A DNA stretch of 64,000 bases from Naegleria gruberi (Eukaryota). The position numbers and the translations under genes were made by a program. Of this stretch, positions 4,966-58,744 are shown piece after piece; position 1 is the stretch's first letter; each line of letters begins with the position of its first letter. The stretch lies in NCBI GenBank assembly GCA_000004985.1, contig GG738926.1; one strand, given 5' to 3'. A model generated the notes under the pieces. The model worked only from the letters and a program-made list of their open reading frames with translations, was not told the origin of the DNA and made no database searches.

Positions 4966-5056
4966 ACTTTTTATTTCTTACCTTTATTATTTCTTACTTT
5001 TTATTCCTTCATTTTGGTCAGTCAGTTAGGAAAATGAATGTATACAATGAAAAATG

Positions 5057-7380
5057 NNNNNNNNNNNNNNNNNNNNNNNNNNNNNNNNNNNNNNNNNNNN
5101 NNNNNNNNNNNNNNNNNNNNNNNNNNNNNNNNNNNNNNNNNNNNNNNNNNNNNNNNNNNNNNNNNNNNNNNNNNNNNNNNNNNNNNNNNNNNNNNNNNNN
5201 NNNNNNNNNNNNNNNNNNNNNNNNNNNNNNNNNNNNNNNNNNNNNNNNNNNNNNNNNNNNNNNNNNNNNNNNNNNNNNNNNNNNNNNNNNNNNNNNNNNN
5301 NNNNNNNNNNNNNNNNNNNNNNNNNNNNNNNNNNNNNNNNNNNNNNNNNNNNNNNNNNNNNNNNNNNNNNNNNNNNNNNNNNNNNNNNNNNNNNNNNNNN
5401 NNNNNNNNNNNNNNNNNNNNNNNNNNNNNNNNNNNNNNNNNNNNNNNNNNNNNNNNNNNNNNNNNNNNNNNNNNNNNNNNNNNNNNNNNNNNNNNNNNNN
5501 NNNNNNNNNNNNNNNNNNNNNNNNNNNNNNNNNNNNNNNNNNNNNNNNNNNNNNNNNNNNNNNNNNNNNNNNNNNNNNNNNNNNNNNNNNNNNNNNNNNN
5601 NNNNNNNNNNNNNNNNNNNNNNNNNNNNNNNNNNNNNNNNNNNNNNNNNNNNNNNNNNNNNNNNNNNNNNNNNNNNNNNNNNNNNNNNNNNNNNNNNNNN
5701 NNNNNNNNNNNNNNNNNNNNNNNNNNNNNNNNNNNNNNNNNNNNNNNNNNNNNNNNNNNNNNNNNNNNNNNNNNNNNNNNNNNNNNNNNNNNNNNNNNNN
5801 NNNNNNNNNNNNNNNNNNNNNNNNNNNNNNNNNNNNNNNNNNNNNNNNNNNNNNNNNNNNNNNNNNNNNNNNNNNNNNNNNNNNNNNNNNNNNNNNNNNN
5901 NNNNNNNNNNNNNNNNNNNNNNNNNNNNNNNNNNNNNNNNNNNNNNNNNNNNNNNNNNNNNNNNNNNNNNNNNNNNNNNNNNNNNNNNNNNNNNNNNNNN
6001 NNNNNNNNNNNNNNNNNNNNNNNNNNNNNNNNNNNNNNNNNNNNNNNNNNNNNNNNNNNNNNNNNNNNNNNNNNNNNNNNNNNNNNNNNNNNNNNNNNNN
6101 NNNNNNNNNNNNNNNNNNNNNNNNNNNNNNNNNNNNNNNNNNNNNNNNNNNNNNNNNNNNNNNNNNNNNNNNNNNNNNNNNNNNNNNNNNNNNNNNNNNN
6201 NNNNNNNNNNNNNNNNNNNNNNNNNNNNNNNNNNNNNNNNNNNNNNNNNNNNNNNNNNNNNNNNNNNNNNNNNNNNNNNNNNNNNNNNNNNNNNNNNNNN
6301 NNNNNNNNNNNNNNNNNNNNNNNNNNNNNNNNNNNNNNNNNNNNNNNNNNNNNNNNNNNNNNNNNNNNNNNNNNNNNNNNNNNNNNNNNNNNNNNNNNNN
6401 NNNNNNNNNNNNNNNNNNNNNNNNNNNNNNNNNNNNNNNNNNNNNNNNNNNNNNNNNNNNNNNNNNNNNNNNNNNNNNNNNNNNNNNNNNNNNNNNNNNN
6501 NNNNNNNNNNNNNNNNNNNNNNNNNNNNNNNNNNNNNNNNNNNNNNNNNNNNNNNNNNNNNNNNNNNNNNNNNNNNNNNNNNNNNNNNNNNNNNNNNNNN
6601 NNNNNNNNNNNNNNNNNNNNNNNNNNNNNNNNNNNNNNNNNNNNNNNNNNNNNNNNNNNNNNNNNNNNNNNNNNNNNNNNNNNNNNNNNNNNNNNNNNNN
6701 NNNNNNNNNNNNNNNNNNNNNNNNNNNNNNNNNNNNNNNNNNNNNNNNNNNNNNNNNNNNNNNNNNNNNNNNNNNNNNNNNNNNNNNNNNNNNNNNNNNN
6801 NNNNNNNNNNNNNNNNNNNNNNNNNNNNNNNNNNNNNNNNNNNNNNNNNNNNNNNNNNNNNNNNNNNNNNNNNNNNNNNNNNNNNNNNNNNNNNNNNNNN
6901 NNNNNNNNNNNNNNNNNNNNNNNNNNNNNNNNNNNNNNNNNNNNNNNNNNNNNNNNNNNNNNNNNNNNNNNNNNNNNNNNNNNNNNNNNNNNNNNNNNNN
7001 NNNNNNNNNNNNNNNNNNNNNNNNNNNNNNNNNNNNNNNNNNNNNNNNNNNNNNNNNNNNNNNNNNNNNNNNNNNNNNNNNNNNNNNNNNNNNNNNNNNN
7101 NNNNNNNNNNNNNNNNNNNNNNNNNNNNNNNNNNNNNNNNNNNNNNNNNNNNNNNNNNNNNNNNNNNNNNNNNNNNNNNNNNNNNNNNNNNNNNNNNNNN
7201 NNNNNNNNNNNNNNNNNNNNNNNNNNNNNNNNNNNNNNNNNNNNNNNNNNNNNNNNNNNNNNNNNNNNNNNNNNNNNNNNNNNNNNNNNNNNNNNNNNNN
7301 NNNNNNNNNNNNNNNNNNNNNNNNNNNNNNNNNNNNNNNNNNNNNNNNNNNNNNNNNNNNNNNNNNNNNNNNNNNNNNNN
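5057..7380. other. Large assembly gap (about 2.3 kb of N)
   Basis: Run of N characters. The X-filled ORFs across it are artefacts. Confidence 0.99.
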
Positions 7381-8900
7381 ACAGAACAATATGTGTCAAC
7401 ATGATTTATTAATAGACATCCGTGGAACAACCATTTTATTATGTTTTATTCATCTTCAACTTTTCATGTTGTTTTGCGACGTATCTGATGATGAAATTAT
7501 TATGTTATCACCAACAAGAGGTGTCGTCAAAAACACCTACGTTGAAGTTGTAAATCATACGGACGTTCCGAAGTTTGGTGGAAAGAGACCTAATATGATG
7601 GAGGTTCAATTTAATGTTGGTAAATTTGATGGAACATGTAGTAAATATCCCATGATTTCTACGCCATACTGATAACTTGTAATACCAGACTGTAATCGAA
7701 TTGTTTCCTGTTAACGTTACCTAAGAGCTGTAACACTACGAGCATCAGATGTAATGTATGCATGTTGCTGTCTCGTTATTATAGTCATTGGTTGTAGTCA
7801 GAAAACAATAACGTAAGTCTAAATATCAAATATAACTTACGATTTTCCGAATCATGGTACCTGTGCGATGTAAACACATCATTAGTAAAATATGTAGCTG
7901 TGTTAGAAAATGGAGCTTGTTACTGTGTATTTTATTGAAACCTGAGTTACTCTTTAGAGTTTTCTGACTTGTTCAGACATCTATATCTTTCTATGATTCT
8001 AAATACTGAGTATTAGCTCCGTGGTACACAATTGAATAATGGAAGTATTATGATGCAAAGAGCTTCCTATTCTTAGCGTAAGTACATAACAGCATGGTAG
8101 CAGTGAAAATTATAATCATAAGATCCTACTGTAAATATGAAGTACGTATTACTGTACTTCTCCTAAATGATTCAAGTTTCATAATAAATAGATGGTGTCC
8201 CTTGTAATTCCAATTCAATTCTTTACAAGTTGAAATACCTCTCTTTTTTGAAGACAGTTAGTTCCACGACAGTGATGTATACCATTACGAGTTCTCTCCT
8301 TAATGTTGGTAGAAATGACACCTTCTGCAGCAGGTTATTCAATTTCGTATAACAAGAACTCTTTATATATTCAATAAATCTGTTATGATTAGGATCTACA
8401 CTATTGCCGTGTTGGTTAAAACGCCAATCGTAAGACATTAAGGTTCCTATAGAATATGACTACGTATTTTTCATAAACTTCGCAGTTTCCTAGAGAGTAA
8501 ATACTATTACCTATCACTTTCAATCTTTCAATATTAAATTAGTATTTTAATTTTGCGTCGCAATAGTTACATTGTGAATCAAAGAGAGATCAACTATTTA
8601 TCCTATTGCTCCAGTAAATATGAAGAGTTACAAATACTGAACTTGAAAAAGTACTTGAACTTAATATCCTTATTAGATTCATTTTATCATTTATTTGGAA
8701 AGGTTGTTCATGATAAAATTTATATTGTACAAAGGTTCACCGCCCTTTTGCTACACAATATAACACATTAGATAGACTAGACTGCAAATATTGTGTGTGT
8801 GCAATAGTGTTGTGATGTTGGTGGTGATGAACCTTAATAGAGATACAATATATCTCAACAACAAACTATTACTTGAACAACAATAAAAAAAACAAACAAA

Positions 8901-9431: not shown

Positions 9432-9944
9432 ATCCAATCACTTTTATCAGTTGAAGTAATTGATATTTATTCTAAAAATATTAAATGATTACCATATGAA
9501 AATCATTTAAGTGAATGTAATTTACAAAATAATAATTTAATTAAAAAGAGGAACAGTTCAATAGATAATATTTCATATAATCAACAATTAAATTCACCTA
9601 ATCAATTTATTAAGAATAATAATTTTAATAATTTATTAAATATTAATAATAATAATAACTTTAATTTAGAAATTAATAATGAAAATTCACCTAATGAAAG
9701 TATTGATTGTCAATCAATGTTAAAAAGTGTGAATTCAAATTATTCAAATTTATCTTCATTATCAAATAATTTAATGAATCCAATTTCAATTTCTAATTTT
9801 AATTCTAATATTATTATAGAAAATATAATTAATAATTTAAACACTTTAGTTTATTAAACATATAATACAACATTCAATTAATTGAAAAAATCATCTAGGA
9901 AAATTATTAGATCTTCAATTTCATTTAGAGAATTATTAAATTAA
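9432..9944 (+). pseudogene. Decayed member of the AT-hook/'SISIKDLLN' family: one reading frame with three in-frame stops and no AT-hook
   Basis: One frame reads ...LLSVEVIDIYSKNIK*LPYENHLSECN...(Asn-rich)...TLVY*TYNTTFN*LKKSSRKIIRSSISFRELLN*. It retains the family's N-terminal (SxVE, IDIY), LPYEN and C-terminal IIRxSISxxxLLN-stop motifs. Stops at 9486, 9855 and 9879. Confidence 0.5.
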
Positions 9945-14621: not shown

Positions 14622-14694
14622 TCCCCCTTAGCTCAGTCGGTAGAGCGTCAGACTGTTAATCTGCAGGTCGGTGGTTCGAGCCCACCAGGGGGAG
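14622..14694 (+). tRNA. tRNA-Asn (anticodon GTT)
   Basis: Cloverleaf read by hand. Acceptor TCCCCCT/AGGGGGA. D-arm GCTC-AGTCGGTA-GAGC. Anticodon loop CTGTTAA (GTT at 34-36). T-arm GGTGG-TTCGAGC-CCACC. Discriminator G. Confidence 0.85.
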
Positions 14695-14704
14695 ATCTAG
14701 AATT

Positions 14705-17700
14705 TTATTTAACAATCTTTAGGAATCTTTTGCATTGTCTTGCCATTTCCTCCTTAAATTCAAGCAATTCCTCACCTCCTCCTTCACAATTCTTCACAAC
14801 TGCCAAATAAAATCTCTTAATTCCCACATGATTATTAATAACAAATAAACTTAGTGAGTCAACTTGTTCCTCTGTTAAAAAACCTTCCTTTTCTAATTTA
14901 AATAAAATTGCCTGAATTTCAATCCATATATTCTCCTCACTATTTTCAAATGTTGATAAAGATGATCTGGATTGTTGTTGATTTTTCTGATCATTTTCCT
15001 CATCTGATAATTTGTTAACTTCTGCTGCTGATGTTGAAATATTTTGTTGTGAATATCCATCTGATAATAATATTTCATCTTCTGATCCATTTACAATTTC
15101 AAATACTTCATGTTCATTCTTTAATTCTTCTAAACTATTATTGCTACTATTGCTAGTATTGCTATTATTCTGATTCATCATAGCAATAACATCATTTTCA
15201 TCATTATTATTAATATTACTATTATTGGATGATTCTACAACTTGAGAATTATTCACAATTTGTACATTTTGATCATTATTTACATTACTACTATTATTTA
15301 CATTATTATTATCAATATTATTATCATGATTATTATTCATTGCATTAATTTTAATAGTTTCTAATTTATCATTCAATATATTTTCAACTCTTTCTTTTAA
15401 ATTATTTAACTTGTTAACAATTTGAGATGCACTTGGTCTCTTTTCAGGTTCAATTTCCACACAATCAAATAAAATTTGTAAATATTCATCTTTTCCAATT
15501 AATTTTTGAACATTTGTTACTTTTTCATTTGGTTTTAAATAATCTGAAATTTTCTTCTTATTAGTTGGAATTTTAAAATCAATTTTTAATTGACCTGAAT
15601 ATAACATGAATGCGACAATACATCCAAATGACCAAATATCAACTTTTTCACTATACGAATCTTCATTATAAATTTCAGGAGCTAAATATAACATTGTACC
15701 ACATGCTGTTCTTGCAAGTGAACTTTGAACATTTTTAGCTAATCCAAAATCACTTAATTTCATAATTGGTTTCATATCATTACTATAATTAGTATTATTA
15801 TTATTAGTATTATTTGAATTTTCAAATGTTACAAAAATATTTGATGGTTTTAAATCTCGATGTATAATATTTCTCTCATGTATATATTCCAATGCTAATG
15901 CTATTTGAATTAACCATTCAATTATTTCCAATTCATTCCAATTTCCAATTTTATTCCAATAATTAACTTTCCTAACATAGAACATGCTTAAATCACCTGA
16001 TTCACAATATGGCATTATAATATTCAATACAAGTGATACCATTTCATTATTATTATCACCACCACTATTAGTATTATTATCATGTTGTTTTTCCTGATTA
16101 ATCATCATCATTCGTTTTTCAATAAAAAATGATAAAGTAGGTAAAATGTTAACATGTTTCAATTGTTGTAGAATTAAAATTTCATTAAATACACTATCAG
16201 ATGCAACTGATTTGTTTCTACCAACATTATCATTAAATATTATATCCATCCTTTTAAGTGCATAATATTTACTTGTAGAAATATTTCCATTATTATTATT
16301 ATTATTAGAATGAATAGAATTATTATTTAATAAGGAAGAAGTTACAGATGCATTTTCATCTCTCACCAGAAATACGCATGCTTGTCCACCTCTTCCTAAT
16401 AATCTTTCAATTACATAATTTCCAACTCTTGTTTCATTTAAAAAGGAAACTTTACGCAAATCACTAATTGAATTTTCATTTAAATTAGTTTCTAATAACC
16501 ACATATCATTAGCTCTAGCAACTAATTTATCTTTATCAACAATTCCACCAAATATTAATGCTTTACCACTATTAGAAATTGGTTGAATGATAAATCCAAT
16601 ACGCGCAGGTAGTGAATTTCTTTTATCATTCATTATTTCATTATTATTATCACTCATATTACCATTTATGGTAGTATTGAAGGTATTATTAAATTTTTTC
16701 CATTGTAAAGTTTCCAAATCCAATACAAAAGTATTATTTAAATAAAGTTTTTTATAAACACCTCCTACTAGTATTAGAAATTTACCCAAAACAACACATT
16801 TATGATCACTTCTCCTTTCAGGATAATCCTCCGATGGATCTCTATCAGGTAATAAATTCTTCCATCTATAGGAATCAATATCAAATAACCATAAATCATT
16901 GGTTTGAATTCCCTTTTCTAAAACTCCACCAAATAATAGAATTTTATCTTTAACTAATCCACACCAATGATTATATCTAGGAAGTGGTATATTATTATTA
17001 TTAGAAATATTACCATTATTAGAAGTATTATTAGAAGTATTATTAATATTTTGATATTCAATTTTTTTCCATTCAAATATAAAATTCTTATAATCTAAAA
17101 TATTTAATAACCACATATCATTTCTAAATGAACCATCATATCCACCATATAATAATATTGAATTATTACTAATAGGTGTTAGAGAATGATAATATCTTGC
17201 TGTTGGTATTTTAATTCCTAAATTCATTGTAAAACCATCTTTAATCATGAAATTATGTGAATCTGTAAATGTTGGAATCCAAGTTGAGTATTGTGAATTT
17301 TTAAATAGTGAATAATATTCATTATCTTCTTGTTCAATAGTAGATGATGATGATTGTGATGATTGTGAATGAGATGAATGAGATGAATTAGATGGTTTGT
17401 AATAACCTTTTAATTTACCTTCATGCCAAGTCATAGTTTCCAAATTTAGAAACCAAACATCGTTTAATCGAATTTTTTTATCTGCAATTCCACCAAATAT
17501 TAAAATAAATTTACTTTCTGGAATTGTACACATTCCATGACGTTCTCTTGGAATTGGAAATAAATATTTTAGGCAATGTGTTGGTGATTTTACTATATTT
17601 GGAATATTTTTCTTTAATTGGTTTAATTCTTCAAATATTAAATTTGATATTTTCTTTAAAAATTCAACCATTTTAGTTTGATAATTTTTAAATATTATTT

Positions 17701-18747: not shown

Positions 18748-19863
18748 ATGGAGAGGGAAATATTTTCGGATGATGTTTGTTTTGAAATAATTTCCATGAT
18801 TGATTCTTCGTGGTTTATTTTAAATAATTGCGCTTTCATTTCAAAACAATTCTTTAATGTGATCAAGGAACGTTCAAGCCTTGTCATTCAATTCAGAGAA
18901 AAATTTACAGAGAAACGAATTGAATTATTTAGGAAAAGTCAATTTATGAATAGAATTGTGAATCTTAAATTTTCTAATTGGTTGCTTGATGCCATTGAAA
19001 AAATCAAATTCATCACTGAAATGAAACAATTAACATTACTTGATATAGGTTACAATCAAATTGGTGTAGAAGGAGCCAAATTGATAAGTGAAATGAAACA
19101 ATTAACATTACTTAATATTGGAACCAATGAAATTGGTGATGAGGGAGCCATAATGATAAGTGAAATGAAACAATTAACATTTCTTGATATTGGTGGCAAT
19201 CAAATTAGTGATGAAGGAGCCAGGTCAATAAGTAAAATGAGGCAATTAACATTTCTTGATATTTATGGCAATGGAATTGGTGATAAAGGAGCCAAATCAA
19301 TAAGTGAAATGCAACAATTAACATTACTTAATATTGGTGGCAATCAAATTGGTGATGAAGGAGCCAAATTGATAAGTCAAATGAAACAATTAACATTTCT
19401 TGATATTTATTGCAATGAAATTGATGTAGAAGGAGCCAAATGCATAAGTGAAATGCAACAATTAACATCACTTAATATTGGTAGCAATGAAATTGGTGTA
19501 GAAGGAGTCAAGTTCTTAAGTGAAATGCAACAATTAACATCACTTAATATTGGTGAAAATCTAATTGGTGATGAAGGAGCCAAATTGATAAGTCAAATGA
19601 AACAATTAACATTTCTTGATATTTATTGCAATGAAATTGGTGTAGAAGGAGCCAAATCAATTAGCGAAATGCAACAATTAACATCACTTAATATTGGTGA
19701 AAATGGAATTGGTGATGAAGGAGCCAAATTGATAAGTGAAATGAAACAATTAACATTTCTTGATATTTATTGCAATGAAATTGGTGTTGAGGGAGCCAAA
19801 TACATAAGTGAAATGAAACAATTAACATCACTTAATATATCTAACAATCAAATTGGTGTATGA
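18748..19863 (+). CDS. Leucine-rich-repeat (RNI/ribonuclease-inhibitor-like) protein built from about 12 tandem 24-aa units (MKQLTxLxIGxNxIGxEGAKxISE)
   Basis: Near-perfect 72-nt coding repeats. The ORF ends at a TGA created by one extra T in the last repeat (ggtgtaTgaagga versus ggtgtagaagga in other units). Confidence 0.7.
   Translation: MEREIFSDDVCFEIISMIDSSWFILNNCAFISKQFFNVIKERSSLVIQFREKFTEKRIELFRKSQFMNRIVNLKFSNWLLDAIEKIKFITEMKQLTLLDIGYNQIGVEGAKLISEMKQLTLLNIGTNEIGDEGAIMISEMKQLTFLDIGGNQISDEGARSISKMRQLTFLDIYGNGIGDKGAKSISEMQQLTLLNIGGNQIGDEGAKLISQMKQLTFLDIYCNEIDVEGAKCISEMQQLTSLNIGSNEIGVEGVKFLSEMQQLTSLNIGENLIGDEGAKLISQMKQLTFLDIYCNEIGVEGAKSISEMQQLTSLNIGENGIGDEGAKLISEMKQLTFLDIYCNEIGVEGAKYISEMKQLTSLNISNNQIGV
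19021..19860 (+). repeat. Tandem array of about 11.7 copies of a 72-bp coding repeat (LRR units)
   Basis: atgaaacaattaaca...ggtgatgaaggagccaaa units recur every 72 nt, seen directly. Confidence 0.75.
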
Positions 19864-19980
19864 AGGAGTCAAATTATTAACATGTTAATAACTTATTGTC
19901 TTTTTTCAGTAATGCCATCTGCTTTAACATCACTGTCCATACAAGGGAATAATAGGAACCTTGTTTATGTAATAGCTCAG

Positions 19981-21297
19981 TTAAATGAATTCAAAGACGC
20001 AATCTGTTAATGTTTGTCTTGTCAAATTTTCAAATAATCTTTCCTTGATTTTTGTAAATTCTTCCACAATTTTAAATTGAAATGAAAACATGAAACCCAT
20101 TTTGATATTTGCCTCTATTTTCGATTCTTTAACAAAATTTGAAAACATTAATTGAACTTGAAATAAATCAGGATTTGAATGAAATGGTCTAAATGATGCC
20201 ATACAAGGACTCTCAATATTTCTCTGATCAGAGATGGCAATTGCTGAAGGTGAATAATTAATAATATCATCTTCTGAAATCATTTGACCATTCTTTGCTA
20301 ATTGGTAAAGTACCTTGTCAGAGTATCCACCATTTAAATCACCAGATTGACATGAATCAATGTTGGTAATTGATTGGTTAAATTTCTTCCAATTTCTTTC
20401 AATTTGAAATGATAAATCTATTGGTTCAATTTCTTTATCATCATTTAAAGAATATACTACTGGATAAACTCTTCTCACACTATTCTCTTCCAAGTCAAAA
20501 ATATGCCATCTCAATTCATTTAACATAAAGTATTGGAAAGTTTCAGGTTTAGATTGATTAGAGCAAGAACATAATAGATAAAATCTATCATTCAATTCAC
20601 ACATGATATGTTTCATATGCACTGCATCTTCATCTGAGATTGGATGTTTCTCATTTTGAGATGTACATTCTTTCAATGAGTTCCAAACCGAGTCACTTTT
20701 GTTTTCAAGTGTAAATAACAGATTTGGATAATAATCAACATTTAAAAGTTGTTTCTTCTGTTGTTTCGTCAAGTTTGGGAAATCTTTCAATGTTGAATGT
20801 TGTTTCATTGTTTCTAATAAAATTTTCCAATAATTATCTCTTGAAATTTGGCAATGTATTTGTTCAGAATCGAATTCATCGTACAAATATTCAGTCTCTA
20901 ATGGAATCATATCCTTAGATTCCATCCAATATCCATTCTTTTTCAATGGAATCAGATTCATTTCATCATTATTTTCAATTAGCAAATATTGAGGAGTATA
21001 ATTTGCTGGAATTACACTTTTACAATTTAGGGAAAAGACAAAACGTGGAATTGCAGATTGATTATCTAATAACAGTAATCCATATATTCTCAAATTGTAA
21101 GTATTTGAATTTGAATAATGTTCGCGATATCGTCTATTGCTCCTACAATATGTACACCTATAGAAATTAAATTGATAGGTCCAGTGGTGACAACAATCAC
21201 ACGGTACATATTCATAATTTTCATCAACTTCAAAGGTTTGCAATAGTGGAAAGTGTGAATTGTCCTTGATGTTTCTTGTGGGGTTGTGTTGTGGCAT
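19981..21297 (-). CDS. Hypothetical protein with a Cys/His-rich N-terminal segment (CDCCHHWTYQFNFYRCTYCRSNRRY). The ORF 21632..21420 may be an upstream exon.
   Basis: Long ORF with ordinary amino-acid composition. Both it and the 21632..21420 ORF are partially duplicated at 55.5 kb. Confidence 0.5.
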   Translation of the reverse strand: MPQHNPTRNIKDNSHFPLLQTFEVDENYEYVPCDCCHHWTYQFNFYRCTYCRSNRRYREHYSNSNTYNLRIYGLLLLDNQSAIPRFVFSLNCKSVIPANYTPQYLLIENNDEMNLIPLKKNGYWMESKDMIPLETEYLYDEFDSEQIHCQISRDNYWKILLETMKQHSTLKDFPNLTKQQKKQLLNVDYYPNLLFTLENKSDSVWNSLKECTSQNEKHPISDEDAVHMKHIMCELNDRFYLLCSCSNQSKPETFQYFMLNELRWHIFDLEENSVRRVYPVVYSLNDDKEIEPIDLSFQIERNWKKFNQSITNIDSCQSGDLNGGYSDKVLYQLAKNGQMISEDDIINYSPSAIAISDQRNIESPCMASFRPFHSNPDLFQVQLMFSNFVKESKIEANIKMGFMFSFQFKIVEEFTKIKERLFENLTRQTLTDCVFEFI

Positions 21298-21887
21298 TTT
21301 ATTTGTTGATTTTGTTTAAATATTCGAAAATAGTAGTAAAAACTTAAAGAAAATAGGAAACAAGAGGAATGAACTTCCGTTAATCTTGGTTTATGTTCCT
21401 TATTTGTGAGAAATGAACTTTAAGCGGAAAGCATTCCGTTCTTTTTACAAGTTGTAATACTTCCACCAATTTTTATTCTTAACCAAATAAAGTTTACAAA
21501 AATTATTTTATTCCATGGTGAAGGTGGAATTATTAACAGGACAAATAGCTCAAAAACAAAACTGCAAAGATCACTTCCGGGTTTTTTACAGCAATCACCT
21601 TCCATGACCCTAGCCTGCAGCTTCTCCTCCATAAGTGATGTGTTTTAATTGCAGTGTGATTGCTGAGAATATTAATCATTGGTAGAGCATCTGTAAAATT
21701 GTTTGGAAAAAATAATCGTAACTTTTGGTTAGAATCAATTAAGTAATAAAACGAAAAGAAGAGACTGCATTGTTAACAATAACTATTACTGCAATATGAT
21801 ATTTAACTCTCGCCTCTAAACTCTTTTATTTACAATTATACAGTGTGGTATGGTGATTGATACTGTAGTGAGATAGATCTACAACAA

Positions 21888-22595
<708 letters not shown>

Positions 22596-22635: not shown

Positions 22636-24717
22636 TTACACAACTGGATCAATTGAAATATAAGTCTCACAAGTACCAATTCCTTTCACTTTGACACCAG
22701 TTCTATGGGTAAACTTAGAGGCAAGATCTTGTGGTAATTTTTCATATGTTTTTGTACAAATTTGAAGGTGATTAGTAAGACTTGTAGATTGCATTCTTGA
22801 AGCAAAATTTACAGTAGCTCCCCAAACGTCATAAGCAGGCTTCTTCTTACCGACAATACCAGCAACAACTTCACCTGTACTCAAACCAATTTTAACATTC
22901 ACTTTGAATTTAGATGTTTTGTTCATATCAGAAACAATTTGTGCCATTTCAAAGGCTCCTCTTACTGCATTTTCCGCAAAATTATTATTCTGTTCTGGTA
23001 AACCACTTGCCAACATATCTATTTCTCATTAGAATCCAATTGAATTGAAATACTTACAATTATCACCAATGGTTTTGATCTTTTCCAATTGATATTTTTG
23101 TATCGTAACATCAAACTTTTCGAAAATGGAATCCAAAAAGCTTATCAGATTCTTTGGAGAAATTTCCATTGACAATTGGTTAAAGTTCTCAATGTCACTA
23201 AACATGATTGTTGCTTGATCGTGGAAGTCGTGAATAAGATCACCATTTACAACTCTAGAGGCTATAGAGGCTGGGAAAATTTGTTCAGCCAAGTGTTTGT
23301 ACTGTTCTGTCTTTGTAATGACGGCTGTCATATCTCTGGCAAACCCAAGGAAAATTCTTTGGTCCTTGTCATCTTTGATTTCAGTAATTTTAAGTTCAAC
23401 AGGAAAAATTTCTCCTGATTTTCTTTTGCCATTAACAACTCTGGTTTTGTCAACAACTCTCTTAATACCAGTCTTGATGTATCTGTTCACAAAGGCATTG
23501 TGATTGATAGCAATTTCATCAGGCATAATTACCGTCAGTGAATTGCCAATAATTTCACTTGCTCTAATACCAAAAACATGTTCAGCAGCAGGATTCCATG
23601 TGTTAACAATTGATAGAGTATCAATGGCAACGATAGGAATTGTTGAAAGTTGTGTTACTGCACTGTGGAACTGGAATGATTGTTGTTGAACTTCCCCTTC
23701 CTCAGCAGTATTATTTCCTTCATTATTTTCTTCTCCAATTAAACTCTTTCTATCCATACTAGCCTGACTGTTACCATCACCATCCTCGTCATCGTCTTCA
23801 TTGTCATCAGCAGCTGCAGCATTCTGATTCTTTAAAACATCTTCAAAATTACTTCCTTTCTGCATACCTTCAGGTTGAAGATAACAAATGAAGAATGGTA
23901 AACCATTTTTGATCATTTCGGTAATTCGTACACCAACCTTCTTGATCGGAGTTTTTGGATCCTTAATATCATACACAACCTTTTCTGCAAGCATTGATTT
24001 AGATCTAAGCTGCAAGTAATCTCTAATTCTTTTCTGAAGTTCACCTGCACTATTTTCATTCAAAATAAGGCAAACATTCTTCGACTGCAAATCTTTGAGG
24101 GATTTTCCAAACAATTCCTCACCGAAACTATTCATTGAATGAATATTTGTTTTTGTATCTACAACGAACACTGGACACATGCAAGCAGAGATATGTTCAT
24201 CCATTTGGAATGCTGGTTCTCCTTGTTCTCCATCATTATATTCTTCAACACCATCAAATTCATCTTCTGTTGGGAGGTCATCCTTGAAATCCACTATTGG
24301 TTTGTTATTGTTCATTTCCTCAATGTCATTATTTTGAGGAACATTATTTATATTGTTATTGTTGGTATTATTAATATCTTGTTTTTGAATATTATTATTT
24401 ACTGGAGGATTAGAAGAAGAAGATGTTGTCGATGGATTTTGTTGTTTCTCTGGGATATACTTTGGTTGATCCTCATAAGTCTTTGTTTTTTGTACATTAG
24501 CCTTTGTGTCGTTCTTACTAGCAACGTTATTATCCTTACTATTGTCCTTCTTTTGAGAGTTTCCTTGAGGTGGTTTGCTAACAATCGCTCCCATCGTGTA
24601 GTGTTTTTTTCTGTAGTTTTTGTTTGCGGGAAAATGGTTATTGTAGTGGTTGATTGTTTGAAAGGCAGTGATGTTGCTTTTTGTTCGCCACGCTGGTCCA
24701 TAATAGACTACCCACAA
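22636..24717 (-). CDS. Class III nucleotidyl (adenylyl-type) cyclase with two PAS domains. The catalytic domain is split by a 39-nt intron (23017..23055).
   Basis: PAS signature PIVAIDTLSIVNTWNPAAEHVFG...RKSGEIFPVELKITEI...FARDMT. Cyclase motifs FSDIENF..., EKIKTIGDN|YMLASGLPE (restored by removing the GTAAGT...TAG intron), YDVWGATVNFASRMQS. K (KIKTIGD) and D (YDVWG) at the specificity positions suggest ATP. Confidence 0.75.
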
Positions 24718-43874: not shown

Positions 43875-45482
43875 TTATTGTGTTGATTTCTTCTTCTTTC
43901 TATTAAAACATGAACAGAATGGCCAATAGATAAATTCATAGACATCCAAAACTGATTTCATATTCAATAGATAGAGAGTAAGCAATAATAGGATCCATAT
44001 CAAAATGAGTTCTGATATGAATTCCAATGCCAAACTACCATCACCCATTGAAAAACTAGTTGACTCTGTGTTGAATTGAATATTCTCAACGGAAATCAAT
44101 ATGAGAAAGATGCACAAGACAATGAATGAAATTGTAATGAGCATTATAAATCTGGTAAATTTGAGAGATTTGAATGAATCAATCTTCTCCTGTGCATTCT
44201 TTGTTCTCGTCAAATCAAGGAATAATTTCATTCCAAATCCAAATATGGCCAAGCTCAAAACAATGAGGATTGTAATGAAGATGAGAAGAATGATACCAGT
44301 TCCCAACACTTCATTCAAACTAGAGGTGATAATATATGAAATTGCCACCGATAAGAAAAATCCCAATCCAACAAATAATAAAACTCTGAGTGGAATTAAG
44401 AGTTTTGGATCTGTGAGTTGTTTTCTCTTTTCACTGAATGCTAAATTGACCCACAGCAAGGTTACTACAAAGACACAAACAGTGATGAGGTAGTACACGA
44501 TGGCAATGATTAGTCTGGTTCTTTTAAAATCCTGAACTCCTAAAATTACTGCTCTAGCTATGGCATAGCCAATTATGGTGAGTGAAATCATAACTTTCAA
44601 AATTAAGGTAAAATGTTTTACAGAAAACCATGTAAATTCTGGATAAATATCAGAATCCTTTTCAATACCCATTGATCCCTCTTCACTGCCAGTCCACAAC
44701 GATCTAACATAGGTATTGAACTTGACAATTAAGTTTCTAATAACTTTGAATATTCTCAATTGAATAATAGAAGGAATAAGTGAAACTGTAATTGACACAA
44801 ATGCAACAATAAATGCCAAAATAACTACAATATAATGATAGGCATAAAAAGCTCGTTTCGAATGAATCAAATTACAATTAGTGGCCCACAAATTCTCCTC
44901 CTCGCAATAACACATAATAGTTGTGGTGTTTCCTCTATACGAATCTACAAAAGGACTACTTTTCGAATTGCCACACAATTGTGTTTGATCATAATCTGGA
45001 TTTTGAGCCATTATAATATCAATAGTTCTGTCCACTCCTCTACACTCTGAAACATTCCACATTTTCATTCGAAACTCATTACTCACCACATTACACAACA
45101 TGCAATATCTCTGAAAAACATAAGAAGGAAGGTCAAGACAAATTTCCTGACACGTTGTTTCGTTCCAATCGGGATGACCATTCCTTGCAGACTCACAAAA
45201 ATCATAAACTAAACTATCCATCACAACTTGTTGGTTATTTGGAAAGGGAACAATGTAGGAATCGGCTACAAGAATCTTGTTGAAACAAGGATAGGGAGTT
45301 GTGTTATTTTCACATGGCTCTTGGAAAATAAAGGGACTGTAATAGAGTGAATTATTATTGGCAGTTGAGTTGAGTGAAGTGTTGTAATAGAGTTGTTGTT
45401 CTTGTCCTAAACAATTATTAGAAACTGATGTGAATAAACAAAAAAGAAGGACAAGAAGAAGAATACCAAGGTTGTGAGACAT
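43875..45482 (-). CDS. Seven-transmembrane receptor-like protein with signal peptide and Cys-rich N-terminal ectodomain. Candidate frizzled/smoothened-like (Fsl) class. Tandem paralog 1.
   Basis: MSHNLGILLLVLLFCLFTSVS signal. About 14 conserved Cys (CENNTTPYPCFNKI, QRYCMLCNVVSNEFRMKMWNVSEC). Seven hydrophobic helices in the C-terminal half. Confidence 0.6.
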   Translation of the reverse strand: MSHNLGILLLVLLFCLFTSVSNNCLGQEQQLYYNTSLNSTANNNSLYYSPFIFQEPCENNTTPYPCFNKILVADSYIVPFPNNQQVVMDSLVYDFCESARNGHPDWNETTCQEICLDLPSYVFQRYCMLCNVVSNEFRMKMWNVSECRGVDRTIDIIMAQNPDYDQTQLCGNSKSSPFVDSYRGNTTTIMCYCEEENLWATNCNLIHSKRAFYAYHYIVVILAFIVAFVSITVSLIPSIIQLRIFKVIRNLIVKFNTYVRSLWTGSEEGSMGIEKDSDIYPEFTWFSVKHFTLILKVMISLTIIGYAIARAVILGVQDFKRTRLIIAIVYYLITVCVFVVTLLWVNLAFSEKRKQLTDPKLLIPLRVLLFVGLGFFLSVAISYIITSSLNEVLGTGIILLIFITILIVLSLAIFGFGMKLFLDLTRTKNAQEKIDSFKSLKFTRFIMLITISFIVLCIFLILISVENIQFNTESTSFSMGDGSLALEFISELILIWILLLLTLYLLNMKSVLDVYEFIYWPFCSCFNRKKKKSTQ

Positions 45483-46168: not shown

Positions 46169-47761
46169 TTAGTTACTCGCTACTTGTTGAGGTGTTTTCT
46201 TCTTTTTGAATAGACCTACAATAGGCCAATAGAGAAACTCATAGGTATCCATAGCAGAGTTATGATTATACAAGTAGAAAGTTATCAAAGTAAGCATCCA
46301 AATCATAACGAGTTCAATAACAAATTCTATTGCCAATCCCAAATCGCCTCGAATAAAATTCACACCAAAGTTTTCTAATGAAAATATTATCAATAGTACA
46401 CACAAAATGATAAATGACGTGGTAATGAGAACTATGAATCGTGTAAATTTCATTGAAACAAAGGAGTCAATGTTATCCTTTTTGACTCTTGTAACTTTGT
46501 AATAGAGAGTAAAACCTGCAATAATAATAGCCAATCCTAACACTATTAAAATAGACATGAAAACTAGCAAAATTGTTCCTGATCCAATATTCAATGCCAG
46601 TATTCTTGTAATGACATAAGCAGCTAAGACTAGAAACATGAAAATTAATCCCACAATATAAATCACTCTGAGAGGAATCAACAATTGATCTTCTGTTTTT
46701 TTCTTTAACTCTTTAACCATCAAATTAATCCATAAAATGCAAATTGTAAATGTACTAATTGTAATCAGGAAAAAGACTATTGCTAAAATTATTTTGTAAT
46801 TGCTGAAATCTTCCACTATGAATAAAGCTATTCTAGATGCAAAGTATCCAAAGGCAGTACATGGAATAAGTAGATTTAACATGAATATGAAATGCTTGAG
46901 AGAAAATGCTTGCTTGGGCAGGAAAATTTCAGAATCACTTAAAACCAATCTCTCGTCTCCCTTAAAGGCAACCCTAACTAAATTATTGAGTTTTTGATTT
47001 AAAACTCTCACCTTTTTGAATAGTCTCGACTGAATTAGGGTTGGCAAGAGAAGCACAGAAAAAGAGAACACAGAAATGAGGAATGATAGAATAATAATAA
47101 TGTAGTGATAGGAGAAATAAGCAAGCTTTGTGGAGAGGTAGCCACAATTGGATGCCCAATAATCCCCCTCCTCACAATAACAAATAGTAACTGTTTGTTG
47201 AATTAGATAGAGAAGTAAAAGAGAACTTTTCGAACTGCCACAAATTTGGGTTTGATCGTAATCTGATGATTTTGTCATGGCCATATCAATTCTTCGGTCA
47301 GGAGCTGGACACTCAGTAACATTCCACATCTTCATCCTAAATTCATTACTCACTACATTACACAACATGCAATAGTTTTGGAATGTTGGATTTGATGATT
47401 TAGTACAAAGCTCTGTGTAGCATTTTGTTGCATTCCAATTATTTCGTGTGGCATAATAGTGGCAAATATCAAATCCTCTTGGTCCAAACGAAACAAGTTT
47501 TTCATTTGGGAACAAAATAAAGCTTGAAAAGATGGTTATCTTGTTAAAACAAGGATAGGGTGTAGTGTTGTTTTCACACGGTTCCAAGAAAGCATTGGGA
47601 CTGTAGTAGAGAGGTTTGTTGTTTGCGGTTGTGTTGAGTGAAGTGTAATAGTAATAATTTTGTGATGATTGTACATTTGACATTAAAAGCAGTAAGAAGG
47701 CAACCACAACAATCATAACAAAGCAATTGAACATGTTTTTTGATTTGTGAAAGCGTAACAA
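46169..47761 (-). CDS. Seven-transmembrane receptor-like protein, tandem paralog 2 (same architecture; probable start Met at 47734)
   Basis: Shares CENNTTPYPCFNKI, NYCMLCNVVSNEFRMKMWNVTEC, LLIPLRV and the 7 TM helices with the 43875..45482 gene. Confidence 0.6.
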   Translation of the reverse strand: MLRFHKSKNMFNCFVMIVVVAFLLLLMSNVQSSQNYYYYTSLNTTANNKPLYYSPNAFLEPCENNTTPYPCFNKITIFSSFILFPNEKLVSFGPRGFDICHYYATRNNWNATKCYTELCTKSSNPTFQNYCMLCNVVSNEFRMKMWNVTECPAPDRRIDMAMTKSSDYDQTQICGSSKSSLLLLYLIQQTVTICYCEEGDYWASNCGYLSTKLAYFSYHYIIIILSFLISVFSFSVLLLPTLIQSRLFKKVRVLNQKLNNLVRVAFKGDERLVLSDSEIFLPKQAFSLKHFIFMLNLLIPCTAFGYFASRIALFIVEDFSNYKIILAIVFFLITISTFTICILWINLMVKELKKKTEDQLLIPLRVIYIVGLIFMFLVLAAYVITRILALNIGSGTILLVFMSILIVLGLAIIIAGFTLYYKVTRVKKDNIDSFVSMKFTRFIVLITTSFIILCVLLIIFSLENFGVNFIRGDLGLAIEFVIELVMIWMLTLITFYLYNHNSAMDTYEFLYWPIVGLFKKKKTPQQVASN

Positions 47762-54066: not shown

Positions 54067-54355
54067 ACAGCCCTACAATCTATTCGCACCCAAAGCAAGG
54101 ATTAGGAAACGATTCTTTTTGGCTTGCTTTTCTCGTCGCACATGTTTTTTGTTTCACACTAATTTTTTGTTTTAGCTCATTTCTTGCTTTAGTATCTTTA
54201 TGAGGTGTGTAGTTTGTAGTGTTCCACCATTTCTGGCACAATTTTGAAAATTTAATTATTTCTTTCACTCCGATCAACCAACAGTTGTGAGATTCACCTT
54301 TCAATCATATGATTTTTAATTGTGATAATTTATTTTTCCATGATGATGAAATAAT

Positions 54356-54844: not shown

Positions 54845-55520
54845 TTTTTTGGGATTTGTTTTTATCGGTTGAGATGGCTCTCTAATTTATTCTCCATGAT
54901 GAATATTGGCACATGACATGTTTGGATAACATGAAGGGTTGAAAGGTAAAATGCTCATTGTAAATGTGAAGATCTTCTGAAAAGATGCGTAACGTTTGAT
55001 GGACAACATAGCGACGAGGTTGAGCTTTTTACTAGCTGATTAACTGTAGATGTTTGAGATGCACTTTCTAAACGAATGCCATGGACTGCATTGACTTGTT
55101 GTCCATTGTAAGATTGAGAGAATTTATTGTAATACTACAGTTAAGATTCGGATAAAGACCAGTGACTTACTGTAATGTTACAATCAAACTCTTCAATTTT
55201 GTGTACAATTTTGGAAATAATATAATGTGCTTTTCACTTTCATTTGTCATGTGGTCATCCTCATTCTTCTGTATGGTCTTTGACATTGAAATCTCAAACA
55301 TACTCATTATCTCCAGCTGTTAAAATCACTTTTTATCAAGTAATCCTAATTCAATACAGGAAACAACTGGTGTTCTGGTTAGATGTTTGGGGAAGACTCA
55401 GAAGTGGTCGCTCACAAGTGTTGGATATTGAATTAATTGTTTTATTACATTATAGATTCTAACCAAAAGTTACAAGAATTTTTTTCAAACAATTTTACAC
55501 ATGCTGTACCAATGATCACT

Positions 55521-55790
55521 TTTCTCAGCAATCACACTGCAATTAAAACACATCACTTTGAGGAGAAGCTGCAGGCTAGGGTCATGGAAGGTGATTGCTG
55601 TAAAAAACCCGGAAGTGATCTCTGCAGTTTTGTTTTTTGGCTATTTTTTCAAAATTTGATGTGGAATTCCACAGTGCATATGAAACATATCATGTGTGAA
55701 TTGAATGATGGATTTTATCTATCATGTTCTTACTCCAAACAATCTAAACCTGAAACTTTCCAATACTTAATGTGAAATGAATTGAGATTT
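55521..55790 (+). pseudogene. Chimeric duplicated fragment: about 130 bp matching 21540..21665 (reverse strand) fused to about 140 bp matching 20560..20700 (reverse strand). Truncated ORF. Lies 50 bp upstream of tRNA-Arg.
   Basis: Direct comparison: ...EEKLQARVMEGDCCKKPGSDLCSFVF... and ...VHMKHIMCELNDGFYLSCSYSKQSKPETFQYLM versus the 19981..21632 locus. DNA identity is roughly 90% by eye. Confidence 0.6.
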
Positions 55791-55839
55791 AACAAAATTC
55801 GCGAATATTACTTGGTGCTAGTATACATTATAATGTAAA

Positions 55840-55913
55840 GCCGTCATAGCTCAGTTGGATAGAGCACAGGACTTCTAATCCTGGGGTCGTGGGTTCGAGC
55901 CCCATTGTCGGTA
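55840..55913 (+). tRNA. tRNA-Arg (anticodon TCT); one T-T mismatch in the acceptor stem
   Basis: Hand-folded. Acceptor GCCGTCA/TGTCGGT. D-arm GCTC-AGTTGGATA-GAGC. Anticodon stem CAGGA/TCCTG with loop CTTCTAA. T-arm GTGGG-TTCGAGC-CCCAT. Confidence 0.75.
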
Positions 55914-56059
55914 TCTGATTTTATTCTTAAAGTAAACATTTTTGAATTTATTGCTAAGATGATTAGAGTGACCAATGGTTGTGTGAAAGATCAATTTTGT
56001 GTTAGCCAAATCAATATGATAATAGCTATTTAACCTATTTTAATTTTCAGTTTAAAGTA

Positions 56060-58744
56060 TTATTCATCACTACTATAGCTACTATCACTAGTATCACTAT
56101 CAGATGAGTAGCTCGATTCCAATGTTTCTATTTTTCTAATAACTCTCTGAGCTTGAATTTTAACAGAGATAGGGAACTGATCTAGATGTCTCAGAATAAA
56201 TAAAACATTTGTAAAATCATGATCTTCAACATCCAGTGAATCGGTATCAAACAAGTATTCTACAAACTCAAAAATACAGCCAAAGATGAGAAATTGCTTT
56301 TCCTTTGGAACTGTAGCTTTGAAGGGATAGACTAAAAGGTTTGGCAGAAAGTCATATAGACTAATTGCAAAGCTACGATTTCTTGTTAATAATAATATAG
56401 CAATCAATACCTCCTCGAATAGGTCAATGTTTGATAATTTCATCAATGCCAAATGAGCAGTTTCAAAATGTTCATCAGTTACATGAGAGAGTAATTGCTC
56501 TCCTCCATTTTGTACAATTTCATTGAGAATGATTGAACTCAAAGCCGAAGCGGAAAGCTGTAAACTCTGAACAATACTTGGAAATGATGGGATAATGAGT
56601 GATAAATGGGTGAGCAGGGCTTCTGATGGAATGGATGCCTCAATAAGTTCGTTAAACAAGTAATCATAGAGAAAATCCTTCTTTTCTTCTGATTGAATTT
56701 CATTCACATCAAATGGACAATGAATCAATAATCCCTTCTCGTAAAGATTTTCAATTAGGACAGCTAATGATCCAATATCAGCTAGTGTATTGCTCATAGC
56801 AGTATCTACTTTCTTTTTTGAAATTACAATTCTAATGAACTTGGTAAGGAATGGATAAAAATCAAACTGTTCAAAAACTCTCGACAATGCGTTTAGATCT
56901 GTTTCTTTGATTATTTTGGCCATGGCTTTGGTGGTTGATAATATTAATTCGTCATTTAGCTTAAACTCATCTTTCTCAAATATTTCCTCAGTCTTTTTCT
57001 TAATAACCAAAAGAATCTTTTCAAATTTAATATTATCATTAATAAATCCAAATAATGTCTCAATCATGTCAAAGCATTCTATAACATTTTCTTTGTGTGT
57101 TTCTAATTTTTCTTCATCACTTAAATCTTGCATATCTTTCAAGTATTCGATTGTGTCGCTCATTATTATGGTTTCAAACAGATTGCTGATAAGCTGTCTA
57201 AATCTCTCCAACATTGAACCGTTCATATTATTGACATCAAAGCAGCAACTAACATTTTCCAGCATTTCACAATATTCCTTGATATTTGTGATATTGGCTT
57301 GGCCAGCATTGATTATTGTTCCCAGTAAATCATCAGAGCACTTCTCTTTTTCGAGGAAGTAACGGGCAATAGTCCTATTAGCAGAACTTCTGATGATTCT
57401 ATTGCTAGAGAATAAAGAATTTTTCCATATTTCTAAAATGCAAGAAATCATCTGTTTAAACTCTTCTGGTATTTCTTCCAACTTGTCCACATCAAGGCAT
57501 ACAGCAGGTAATGAAATGATATTAGCTGACTCTCTCAAAAGTCCTTCGTATTGTGTTTTAATTTCGTTTCTCTTCAAGTTTTCAATTATTAAATCTTTAA
57601 ATTGTAGAAGTACTGAAACACGTAAGAGAATATCATGCCTAATTATCAGTTCATCCTGGTCTTCGTACTCCTTTTCCATCAATACAAATCCAAGAGTGTT
57701 CATTATTTTGCCTTTAACAATGTACACATGATCTCCAAAGTTTTCAGATTGTTCGTTCGTAATATTCGAAGCTTCCATATCCTTAACTTCTTCGTAATCT
57801 TTCTTCATTAAGGAAAACAAATGACTCCACCTTGTGTCGTCAGTATTTGCTAGTTTTGCAAGAGTTAACATTTTCGTTGCATCTACTTTTAAATCCTCTG
57901 TATCATCCTCCAAGCTTAGCCCAGTAAGTTTATAAATTAATTCAATGTAAATTGGAATACAGTTTAAAATTTTTGATCTTAATTCATCCAATTCATCGAT
58001 TTCAATTGAAAAGATATCTTTAAGGAATGGAGGCCAAAACGAAATATTAGAACCCATTAAAGGTTGGTTCTCTTGTTTCCAATTTTGGTCATTGTTTTCC
58101 TTCAAATACTTGACCTTCTTTTCCTTCATATATTTCAACGTAGTCAGCATTACAAAACATGAATTGTAATATTTTTCCATATCCGAAATAGGTAAATATC
58201 GATAACTGAAAATGTCAACTTGTAATTTAGTATATAAATGTAAAACAATTTTCTGCCAAGCCTCCAAAATTCCAATTCCAGTTTCGAATTGTCTCACCTG
58301 TCCATTATATGCCTCCTTTTTCAATTTCTTGGCACAATCAAACACTTCCTTCAATACATTCTCTTCAACATAATAAAGAAATGGAACAAAAGCCTCTGAT
58401 CTAATTCTTGTCATTGTCTCACGTGAAACTATAAAGTAATGATAAATCATCAGCATGGTCTTGATACAAATTACATCTTCGTCATCATGATCCCGCTCAT
58501 CAAATACAAATAATTTAGAACCAGTATAATATGATAAATCATCATCAAAATCAAAATGACTTGACAATATTTTGTTAGTTTCTTTATGACGGTCTTTCCA
58601 GAAAATGGAAACTAGTGAATAATTAGTTCGGACAATCATCTTTACTTCATCAAAATTTCTACGTAAATCATTCAAAGAGTCAAGTTTTCTACATTCCGAC
58701 ATGTAGTCCTCTTGAATGAACGGAAAAATTCCATCTTTAATCAT
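56060..58744 (-). CDS. Large hypothetical protein (894 aa), probably helical-repeat, with an acidic Ser-rich C-terminus
   Basis: Uninterrupted ORF with ordinary composition. No motif I can name. Confidence 0.45.
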   Translation of the reverse strand: MIKDGIFPFIQEDYMSECRKLDSLNDLRRNFDEVKMIVRTNYSLVSIFWKDRHKETNKILSSHFDFDDDLSYYTGSKLFVFDERDHDDEDVICIKTMLMIYHYFIVSRETMTRIRSEAFVPFLYYVEENVLKEVFDCAKKLKKEAYNGQVRQFETGIGILEAWQKIVLHLYTKLQVDIFSYRYLPISDMEKYYNSCFVMLTTLKYMKEKKVKYLKENNDQNWKQENQPLMGSNISFWPPFLKDIFSIEIDELDELRSKILNCIPIYIELIYKLTGLSLEDDTEDLKVDATKMLTLAKLANTDDTRWSHLFSLMKKDYEEVKDMEASNITNEQSENFGDHVYIVKGKIMNTLGFVLMEKEYEDQDELIIRHDILLRVSVLLQFKDLIIENLKRNEIKTQYEGLLRESANIISLPAVCLDVDKLEEIPEEFKQMISCILEIWKNSLFSSNRIIRSSANRTIARYFLEKEKCSDDLLGTIINAGQANITNIKEYCEMLENVSCCFDVNNMNGSMLERFRQLISNLFETIIMSDTIEYLKDMQDLSDEEKLETHKENVIECFDMIETLFGFINDNIKFEKILLVIKKKTEEIFEKDEFKLNDELILSTTKAMAKIIKETDLNALSRVFEQFDFYPFLTKFIRIVISKKKVDTAMSNTLADIGSLAVLIENLYEKGLLIHCPFDVNEIQSEEKKDFLYDYLFNELIEASIPSEALLTHLSLIIPSFPSIVQSLQLSASALSSIILNEIVQNGGEQLLSHVTDEHFETAHLALMKLSNIDLFEEVLIAILLLTRNRSFAISLYDFLPNLLVYPFKATVPKEKQFLIFGCIFEFVEYLFDTDSLDVEDHDFTNVLFILRHLDQFPISVKIQAQRVIRKIETLESSYSSDSDTSDSSYSSDE

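Follow-up and report, generated by a model that had tools for sequence, protein, structure and literature searches.

The spacer upstream of a tRNA-Arg(TCT) gene in Naegleria gruberi NEG-M holds a 424-bp relic that is probably the non-functional remnant of an old inverted duplication at the DNA level, since decayed by deletion. A tract of at least 1.53 kb (22035-20508, minus strand), comprising the 3' third of a phosphatase gene, the entire spacer behind it and the first 60% of a gene for a 438-aa protein, would have given rise to an inverted copy in the spacer that precedes the tRNA gene, and this copy would have held no complete gene from the outset. Neutral drift of the copy would then have brought 6-10% substitutions and small indels, and two large deletions (~210 bp and ~900 bp) would have united the three blocks that survive.

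All positions refer to the window, by which we mean the whole 64,000-nt stretch of DNA that was analysed. The window is AT-rich, with a GC content of 29.9%, and contains long open reading frames (ORFs), most of them without introns. Positions 4001-8000 have a GC content of 10-15% as against ~32% elsewhere, and short low-complexity repeats surround this AT-rich part (170-3900, 9600-9680 and 15260-17050). Two ORFs of ~530 aa each on the minus strand, 43875-45482 and 46169-47761, are in places 74-80% identical at the DNA level (44874-45382 versus 47144-47646) and look like a tandem pair of paralogues.

A BLASTN search with positions 55200-56200 as query against the whole window returned three matches besides the query itself, all of them inverted and in the order of the source. 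The preliminary description of this DNA had reported a duplicated fragment inverted with respect to its source, and the E-values, which go down to 8e-82, bear this out; judged from the alignments, the similarity is real and far above chance. The relic and its surroundings are made up as follows.

55365..55422, plus strand: block A; BLASTN identity of 89.7% over 58 nt to 22035-21978, E 1e-16
55423..55438, plus strand: junction between blocks A and B; 16 nt that align only with indels, to the source as far as ~21964
55439..55646, plus strand: block B; BLASTN identity of 91.4% over 210 columns to 21752-21543, E 8e-82
55672..55788, plus strand: block C; BLASTN identity of 94.0% over 117 nt to 20624-20508, E 5e-47
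55840..55913, plus strand: tRNA-Arg(TCT), intact; ARAGORN, and Rfam RF00005 with 65.2 bits

Block A corresponds to 19 codons from the catalytic-loop region of the gene for a PFA-DSP phosphatase, the copy reading TGVLVRCLGKTQKWSLTSV, and was also found by tblastn with the phosphatase as query (E 4e-6). To its left, weaker homology probably extends to ~55354. The homology of block B runs on with indels to 55671, where the junction alignment assigns AATTCCA to source positions ~21530-21524; within the block, 55558-55646 is 95.5% identical to the source. Block C represents codons 225-263 of the 438-aa gene NAEGRDRAFT_75563. The relic, 55365-55788 (424 bp), is wholly accounted for by homology to this host locus. 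Even by sensitive blastn and tblastn, homology outside blocks A, B and C was not detected, and a self-BLAST of the whole window gave no further copies of the pair of relic and source. Both source pieces named in the preliminary description are real, but their count was wrong, as the block at 55365-55422 had been missed. The first piece starts not at 55521 but ~80 bp further left, at 55439; the second derives from 20624-20508 rather than from about 20560-20700, and the two source pieces lie 918 bp apart instead of about 850 bp.

The relic occupies the spacer between NAEGRDRAFT_82136 and tRNA-Arg(TCT), 34 kb from its source on the same scaffold. Its homology stops 51 bp short of the tRNA, which had been correctly reported downstream of the fragment and which is a neighbour that lies outside the duplicated tract. 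Adjacency to a tRNA gene is probably incidental, since mobile-element sequence is absent and nothing comparable is found upstream of the other tRNA of the window (Asn, 14622-14694).

The three donor segments lie within two genes and the spacer between them.

21888..22592, minus strand: source gene 1, PFA-DSP / Siw14-type phosphatase NAEGRDRAFT_75564; Pfam Y_phosphatase2, E 1e-58
21543..21752, minus strand: source of block B in the inter-gene spacer, between the phosphatase stop at 21888 and the start of the 438-aa gene at 21297
19981..21297, minus strand: source gene 2, NAEGRDRAFT_75563; 438 aa, single exon, 100% identical to XP_002669476

The donor of block A (21978-22035) falls within the phosphatase gene and that of block C (20508-20624) within NAEGRDRAFT_75563, while the source of block B overlaps the 5' part of a 70-aa ORF at 21420-21632. 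With block A coming from the phosphatase gene, the copied tract takes in the end of one gene, the spacer and the beginning of the next gene. A hidden last phosphatase exon was considered for block B and rejected: orthologous phosphatases end in …QQFIELFTI, at the same point as the ORF in the window, which makes block B 3'UTR or spacer.

The phosphatase ORF matches XP_002669477 exactly from the methionine at 22316. NAEGRDRAFT_75564 is annotated with 142 aa from this methionine, and the open frame has 234 aa. Its orthologues from N. fowleri (226 aa) and Willaertia (201 aa) align upstream of Met 22316, with tblastn reaching 22424, so that the NEG-M phosphatase model looks truncated at its N-terminus. 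Next to the phosphatase, a PAS-domain adenylate/guanylate cyclase is split over the minus-strand ORFs 22636-23016 and 23029-24717, with the Guanylate_cyc domain spanning the gap; a short intron is the likely cause of this split at 22636-24717. The cyclase is split likewise in prokaryote-style gene calls on N. fowleri contigs.

The 438-aa protein, annotated as 'predicted protein', has no Pfam domain, and its sole relative in the protein search is a 98% identical strain variant; NAEGRDRAFT_75563 is an orphan gene. Compared with its counterpart on L001, a contig from a sister strain (ENA ERZ929261, k127_56442), it shows 9 synonymous and 9 non-synonymous differences (pS 0.037, pN 0.008), and the resulting pN/pS of 0.225 marks it as a real, constrained gene. 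Tail to tail with it lies an ORF at 18748-19863 (plus strand) with a tandem array of a 72-bp unit at 19005-19875 (12 copies, 80% matches, and a super-period of 216 bp). Translated, the array yields LRR_6 repeats of 24 residues (Pfam LRR_6, E 3e-55), and the protein is of the RNI-like leucine-rich-repeat kind. On the plus strand at 21399-21498, a sub-threshold Rfam match to U5 snRNA (24.7 bits versus a gathering threshold of 40, E 0.17 in a 600-nt search) is most likely due to chance, as the candidate has 4 nt in place of a consensus stretch of 25 nt.

Relative to the source, ~210 bp are missing between blocks A and B, among them the stop codon of the phosphatase, and ~900 bp between blocks B and C, including the ATG and the first 224 codons of the 438-aa gene. 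The stretches that now lie between the blocks (16 nt and 25 nt) align, with indels, to source sequence past the block edges (to ~21964 and ~21524). Such resemblance to the adjoining source is expected of contiguous DNA that has decayed. The resemblance favours deletion at a later stage, although with 6-10% divergence the junctions themselves are blurred.

These missing segments bear on the origin proposed in the preliminary description, a template-switched or retro-copied pseudogene fragment or a copy of a partially processed transcript. A retrocopy would stem from a read-through or partially processed transcript of both source genes, with insertion upstream of a tRNA in the manner of tRNA-targeted retroelements. 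The phosphatase gene and the 438-aa gene share a strand, which makes a read-through RNA conceivable, and the end of homology 51 bp upstream of the tRNA recalls the position of TRE5-A in Dictyostelium. TRE5-A sits ~50 bp from tRNA genes. However, neither missing segment has GT..AG ends: one begins with CTTCACC… and ends with …GAAGATGC, the other begins at about GACGATT… and ends with …CTTTTC. The second missing segment, moreover, deprives a single-exon gene of its start codon and 224 codons, and the third block, from the neighbouring gene, speaks against the proposed transcript as well. Poly-A and target-site duplications had been suggested as marks to look for. Runs of at least 6 A or T occur only inside block B, and none borders on an end of the homology, so neither end carries poly(A) or poly(T); a target-site duplication is equally absent, as no direct repeat longer than 6 nt flanks the relic and the longest k-mer shared by the flanks (CATTAT, 6 nt) lies far from the edges. 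Around the relic there is no retroelement body, LTR or ORF for reverse transcriptase or integrase; the ORFs at 54.3-58.7 kb are host genes, and the neighbours encode a RabGAP-TBC protein, a 162-aa membrane protein and an 894-aa orphan. Processed pseudogenes and the tRNA-targeted elements TRE5-A and DGLT-A of Dictyostelium or Ty3 of yeast thus resemble the relic solely in the position ~50 bp upstream of a tRNA; the relic differs from them in having no poly(A), target-site duplication, LTR, reverse transcriptase or integrase and no splice-like edges, and in holding spacer DNA from between two genes. We consider a retrocopy highly improbable. Searches of the literature returned nothing relevant on Naegleria transposable elements near tRNA genes, on segmental duplications or on ENA project PRJEB11402.

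The preliminary description had also raised the idea that the two source pieces are exons of one gene. The 438-aa ORF coincides exactly with the single-exon NAEGRDRAFT_75563, which speaks against this. Nor does the 70-aa ORF qualify as its upstream exon: it has no match in the protein collection, and in the sister strain its frame is broken by one 8-bp and two 1-bp indels, while the spacer is otherwise ~97% identical and the 438-aa gene is kept. On this comparison, the 70-aa ORF at 21420-21632 appears to be spurious.

Blocks B and C are joined in phase, giving rise to a short ORF across the junction.

55437..55775, plus strand: fused ORF; 112 codons with TTG as start, 87 aa with the first in-frame ATG (55512) as start

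This fused ORF exists as previously described, with TTG as its listed start and an end reading …CSFVFWLFFQNLMWNSTVHMKHIMCELNDGFYLSCSYSKQSKPETFQYLM before the stop codon. The stop (55773-55775) lies 64 bp before tRNA-Arg(TCT), not 50 bp; it is the homology that ends at 51 bp. Taken at face value, the relic might be a young chimeric gene with an ORF of 87-112 codons, or block B might have been kept as a promoter or RNA gene. The in-phase join and the 95.5% identity of 55558-55646 to the source would speak for such a function. Yet an in-phase join is expected by chance in one of three cases, and block B as a whole (91%) is no more similar to its source than blocks A and C. In every start variant tried, the fused ORF and the 70-aa source ORF had no match in a collection of 15 billion proteins. 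A HMMER search of the fused ORF against 1.84 billion cluster representatives found the parent gene alone (aa 224-258), its sole homologue; two other matches in this search are artefacts that add up weak similarities over repeats in giant proteins. The new stop cuts the parental frame, the ATG of the small ORF is gone, the substitutions are mostly non-synonymous and the frame of the 70-aa ORF is itself shifted in the sister strain. Block B is without an Rfam match and folds like its shuffles. A functional product or element is therefore, in our estimate, very unlikely, and the fused ORF is best read not as a gene but as a frame that by chance stays open through blocks B and C, the join being a probable accident of the second deletion.

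Several other identities were tried for block B. Rfam searches of both copies, at gathering thresholds and with E-values up to 10, gave sub-threshold noise only and no structured RNA or known family. On either strand and in either copy, the block folded no better than shuffled sequences (z-scores of +1.2, -0.3 and +0.3). Derivation from SSU rRNA was rejected with no significant alignment and no cmscan match. Membership of block B or the 438-aa gene in a multi-copy or mobile family was likewise dismissed, as self-BLAST of the window gives this pair alone. Scanning JGI metagenomes with a 22-mer of block B returned one chance match without flanking homology.

The lesions of the copy are consistent with loss of constraint. 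Each of the two gene pieces is truncated, and the 70-aa source ORF has lost its ATG in the copy. Relative to the source, the relic carries 6-10% substitutions together with several small indels. Block A shows 2 synonymous and 4 non-synonymous differences; block C shows 1 synonymous and 5 non-synonymous differences and, in addition, a change from TTA to the stop codon TGA. At all seven sites at which block C differs, the source gene of the sister strain is like that of NEG-M. Taken together, blocks A and C have 3 synonymous versus 9 non-synonymous differences and one stop, as compared with a pN/pS of 0.225 for the parent gene; these are small counts (6 and 6 sites, plus the stop), by which neutral decay of the copy is supported rather than proven. 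The earlier characterization of a chimeric-looking and probably dead fragment agrees with these lesions and with the neutral pattern, but the mechanisms proposed for it do not hold.

We compared the window with two contigs of the sister strain, L001 and L003; a further contig, L002, turned out to be unrelated and bacterial. L003, on which the RabGAP-TBC gene and the gene for the 162-aa protein lie, matches the window as far as 55353 and from there on reads TCACTCACAAGTA…AATAAATTGTTTTATTACA, the last part of block A and, behind it, the first part of block B. The sister strain thus has the relic at the same site, minus 55354-55410. This further deletion of 57 bp is flanked by TCA microhomology. 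L003 ends 10 nt into block B, and our view of the sister-strain relic extends to that point. Copy and source of block B diverge by 8.6%, as compared with a divergence between the strains of 3.7% at synonymous sites (pS) and ~3-5% in spacers, so that the duplication fits an age older than the split of the strains.

Between the RabGAP-TBC gene and that for the 162-aa membrane protein, 150 bp of spacer present in the window (54071-54220) are absent from L003, an indel polymorphism between the strains. Indels of ~100 bp thus arise readily in these spacers.

The homology of L001 to the window stops at the inner edge of block B (~21546). Positions 13-110 of L001 match eukaryotic SSU rRNA (Rfam RF01960, positions 1229-1323, 20.8 bits, E 1e-3). 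This rRNA-like head has changes at core positions that are normally invariant, shows no similarity to block B and is joined at window position ~21546-21560, in the upstream region of the 438-aa gene. It is either an assembly chimera at the edge of a repeat or a chromosomal insert derived from rDNA. Naegleria rDNA is normally confined to a plasmid, and a chromosomal insert of this kind would be unusual for that reason. The homology of L001 stops, and L003 itself comes to its end, at an edge of block B, which suggests assembly breaks induced by the repeat.

The direction of the duplication can be read from N. fowleri. There, the PAS-cyclase adjoins the phosphatase as it does in the window, and the gene after the phosphatase encodes an E2F/DP factor; neither the 438-aa gene nor block B is found at this place. 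The relic holds merely 19 phosphatase codons. The conserved adjacency of cyclase and phosphatase makes the locus at 22 kb the ancestral home of block A, and the locus at 55 kb the recipient.

A different course of events would build the three-piece structure in one step. Repair of a break or a stalled fork in the spacer upstream of the tRNA would have copied three short tracts one after another, all from the one donor that lies 34 kb away, with template switching (MMBIR/FoSTeS) or repeated strand invasion during SDSA as candidate mechanisms, and the gaps would never have been part of the copy. Indeed, the blocks are short (58-210 bp), follow the source order in a single orientation and have their donor in cis; a target-site duplication is absent, and a tRNA gene lies next to the site. 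Replication forks are known to pause at tRNA genes in yeast. In its multiple pieces, its cis donor, its inversion and its lack of a target-site duplication, the relic resembles templated insertions of the MMBIR/FoSTeS type and the 'filler DNA' of double-strand break repair. It differs from them in its strict collinearity and in the donor resemblance between the pieces: unlike random filler, the stretches of 16 nt and 25 nt align to source sequence beyond the block edges. In addition, the sister-strain relic lost 57 bp after the insertion, at TCA microhomology, and the 150-bp indel elsewhere in the spacer indicates that such events are common. We consider copying of three tracts in one step unlikely, and less likely than a duplication followed by deletions; that a single templated patchwork insertion arose specifically through replication-associated break repair next to tRNA-Arg is, in our judgement, quite unlikely. 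If this were true, template switching of the MMBIR kind would have left a natural footprint at a Pol III gene of a heterolobosean amoeba.

For the duplication with later deletions, both the order of events (one duplication first, deletions afterwards) and the lack of function of the relic are what we infer from comparing the sequences. By its properties the relic is an ordinary non-processed pseudogene fragment, another instance of a well-known kind. Like other relics of segmental duplication, it contains intergenic DNA and parts of two adjacent genes, with homology running in native order through the spacer, and has neither poly(A) nor target-site duplications. Its stop codon, lost ATG, truncations and neutral-looking substitutions point to relaxed constraint, though the substitution counts are small; the parent site is the ancestral one, and the relic is common to the sister strain, where it has been further and independently eroded. 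It departs from the typical case in being very small (424 bp of at least 1.53 kb) and inverted, and in having ends without repeats or mobile-element sequence that would explain the move.

Many such relics next to tRNA genes, if found genome-wide, would hint at Pol III loci that are prone to breakage, a question on which a single relic says nothing. For the annotation of N. gruberi, 55365-55788 is to be treated as a pseudogene relic, and neither the 112-codon ORF nor the 70-aa ORF as a gene. With ~70% of a 1.5-kb duplicate gone at ~9% divergence, and more lost in one strain, the relic represents a small, dated case of rapid deletional loss from a spacer in the compact genome of N. gruberi.
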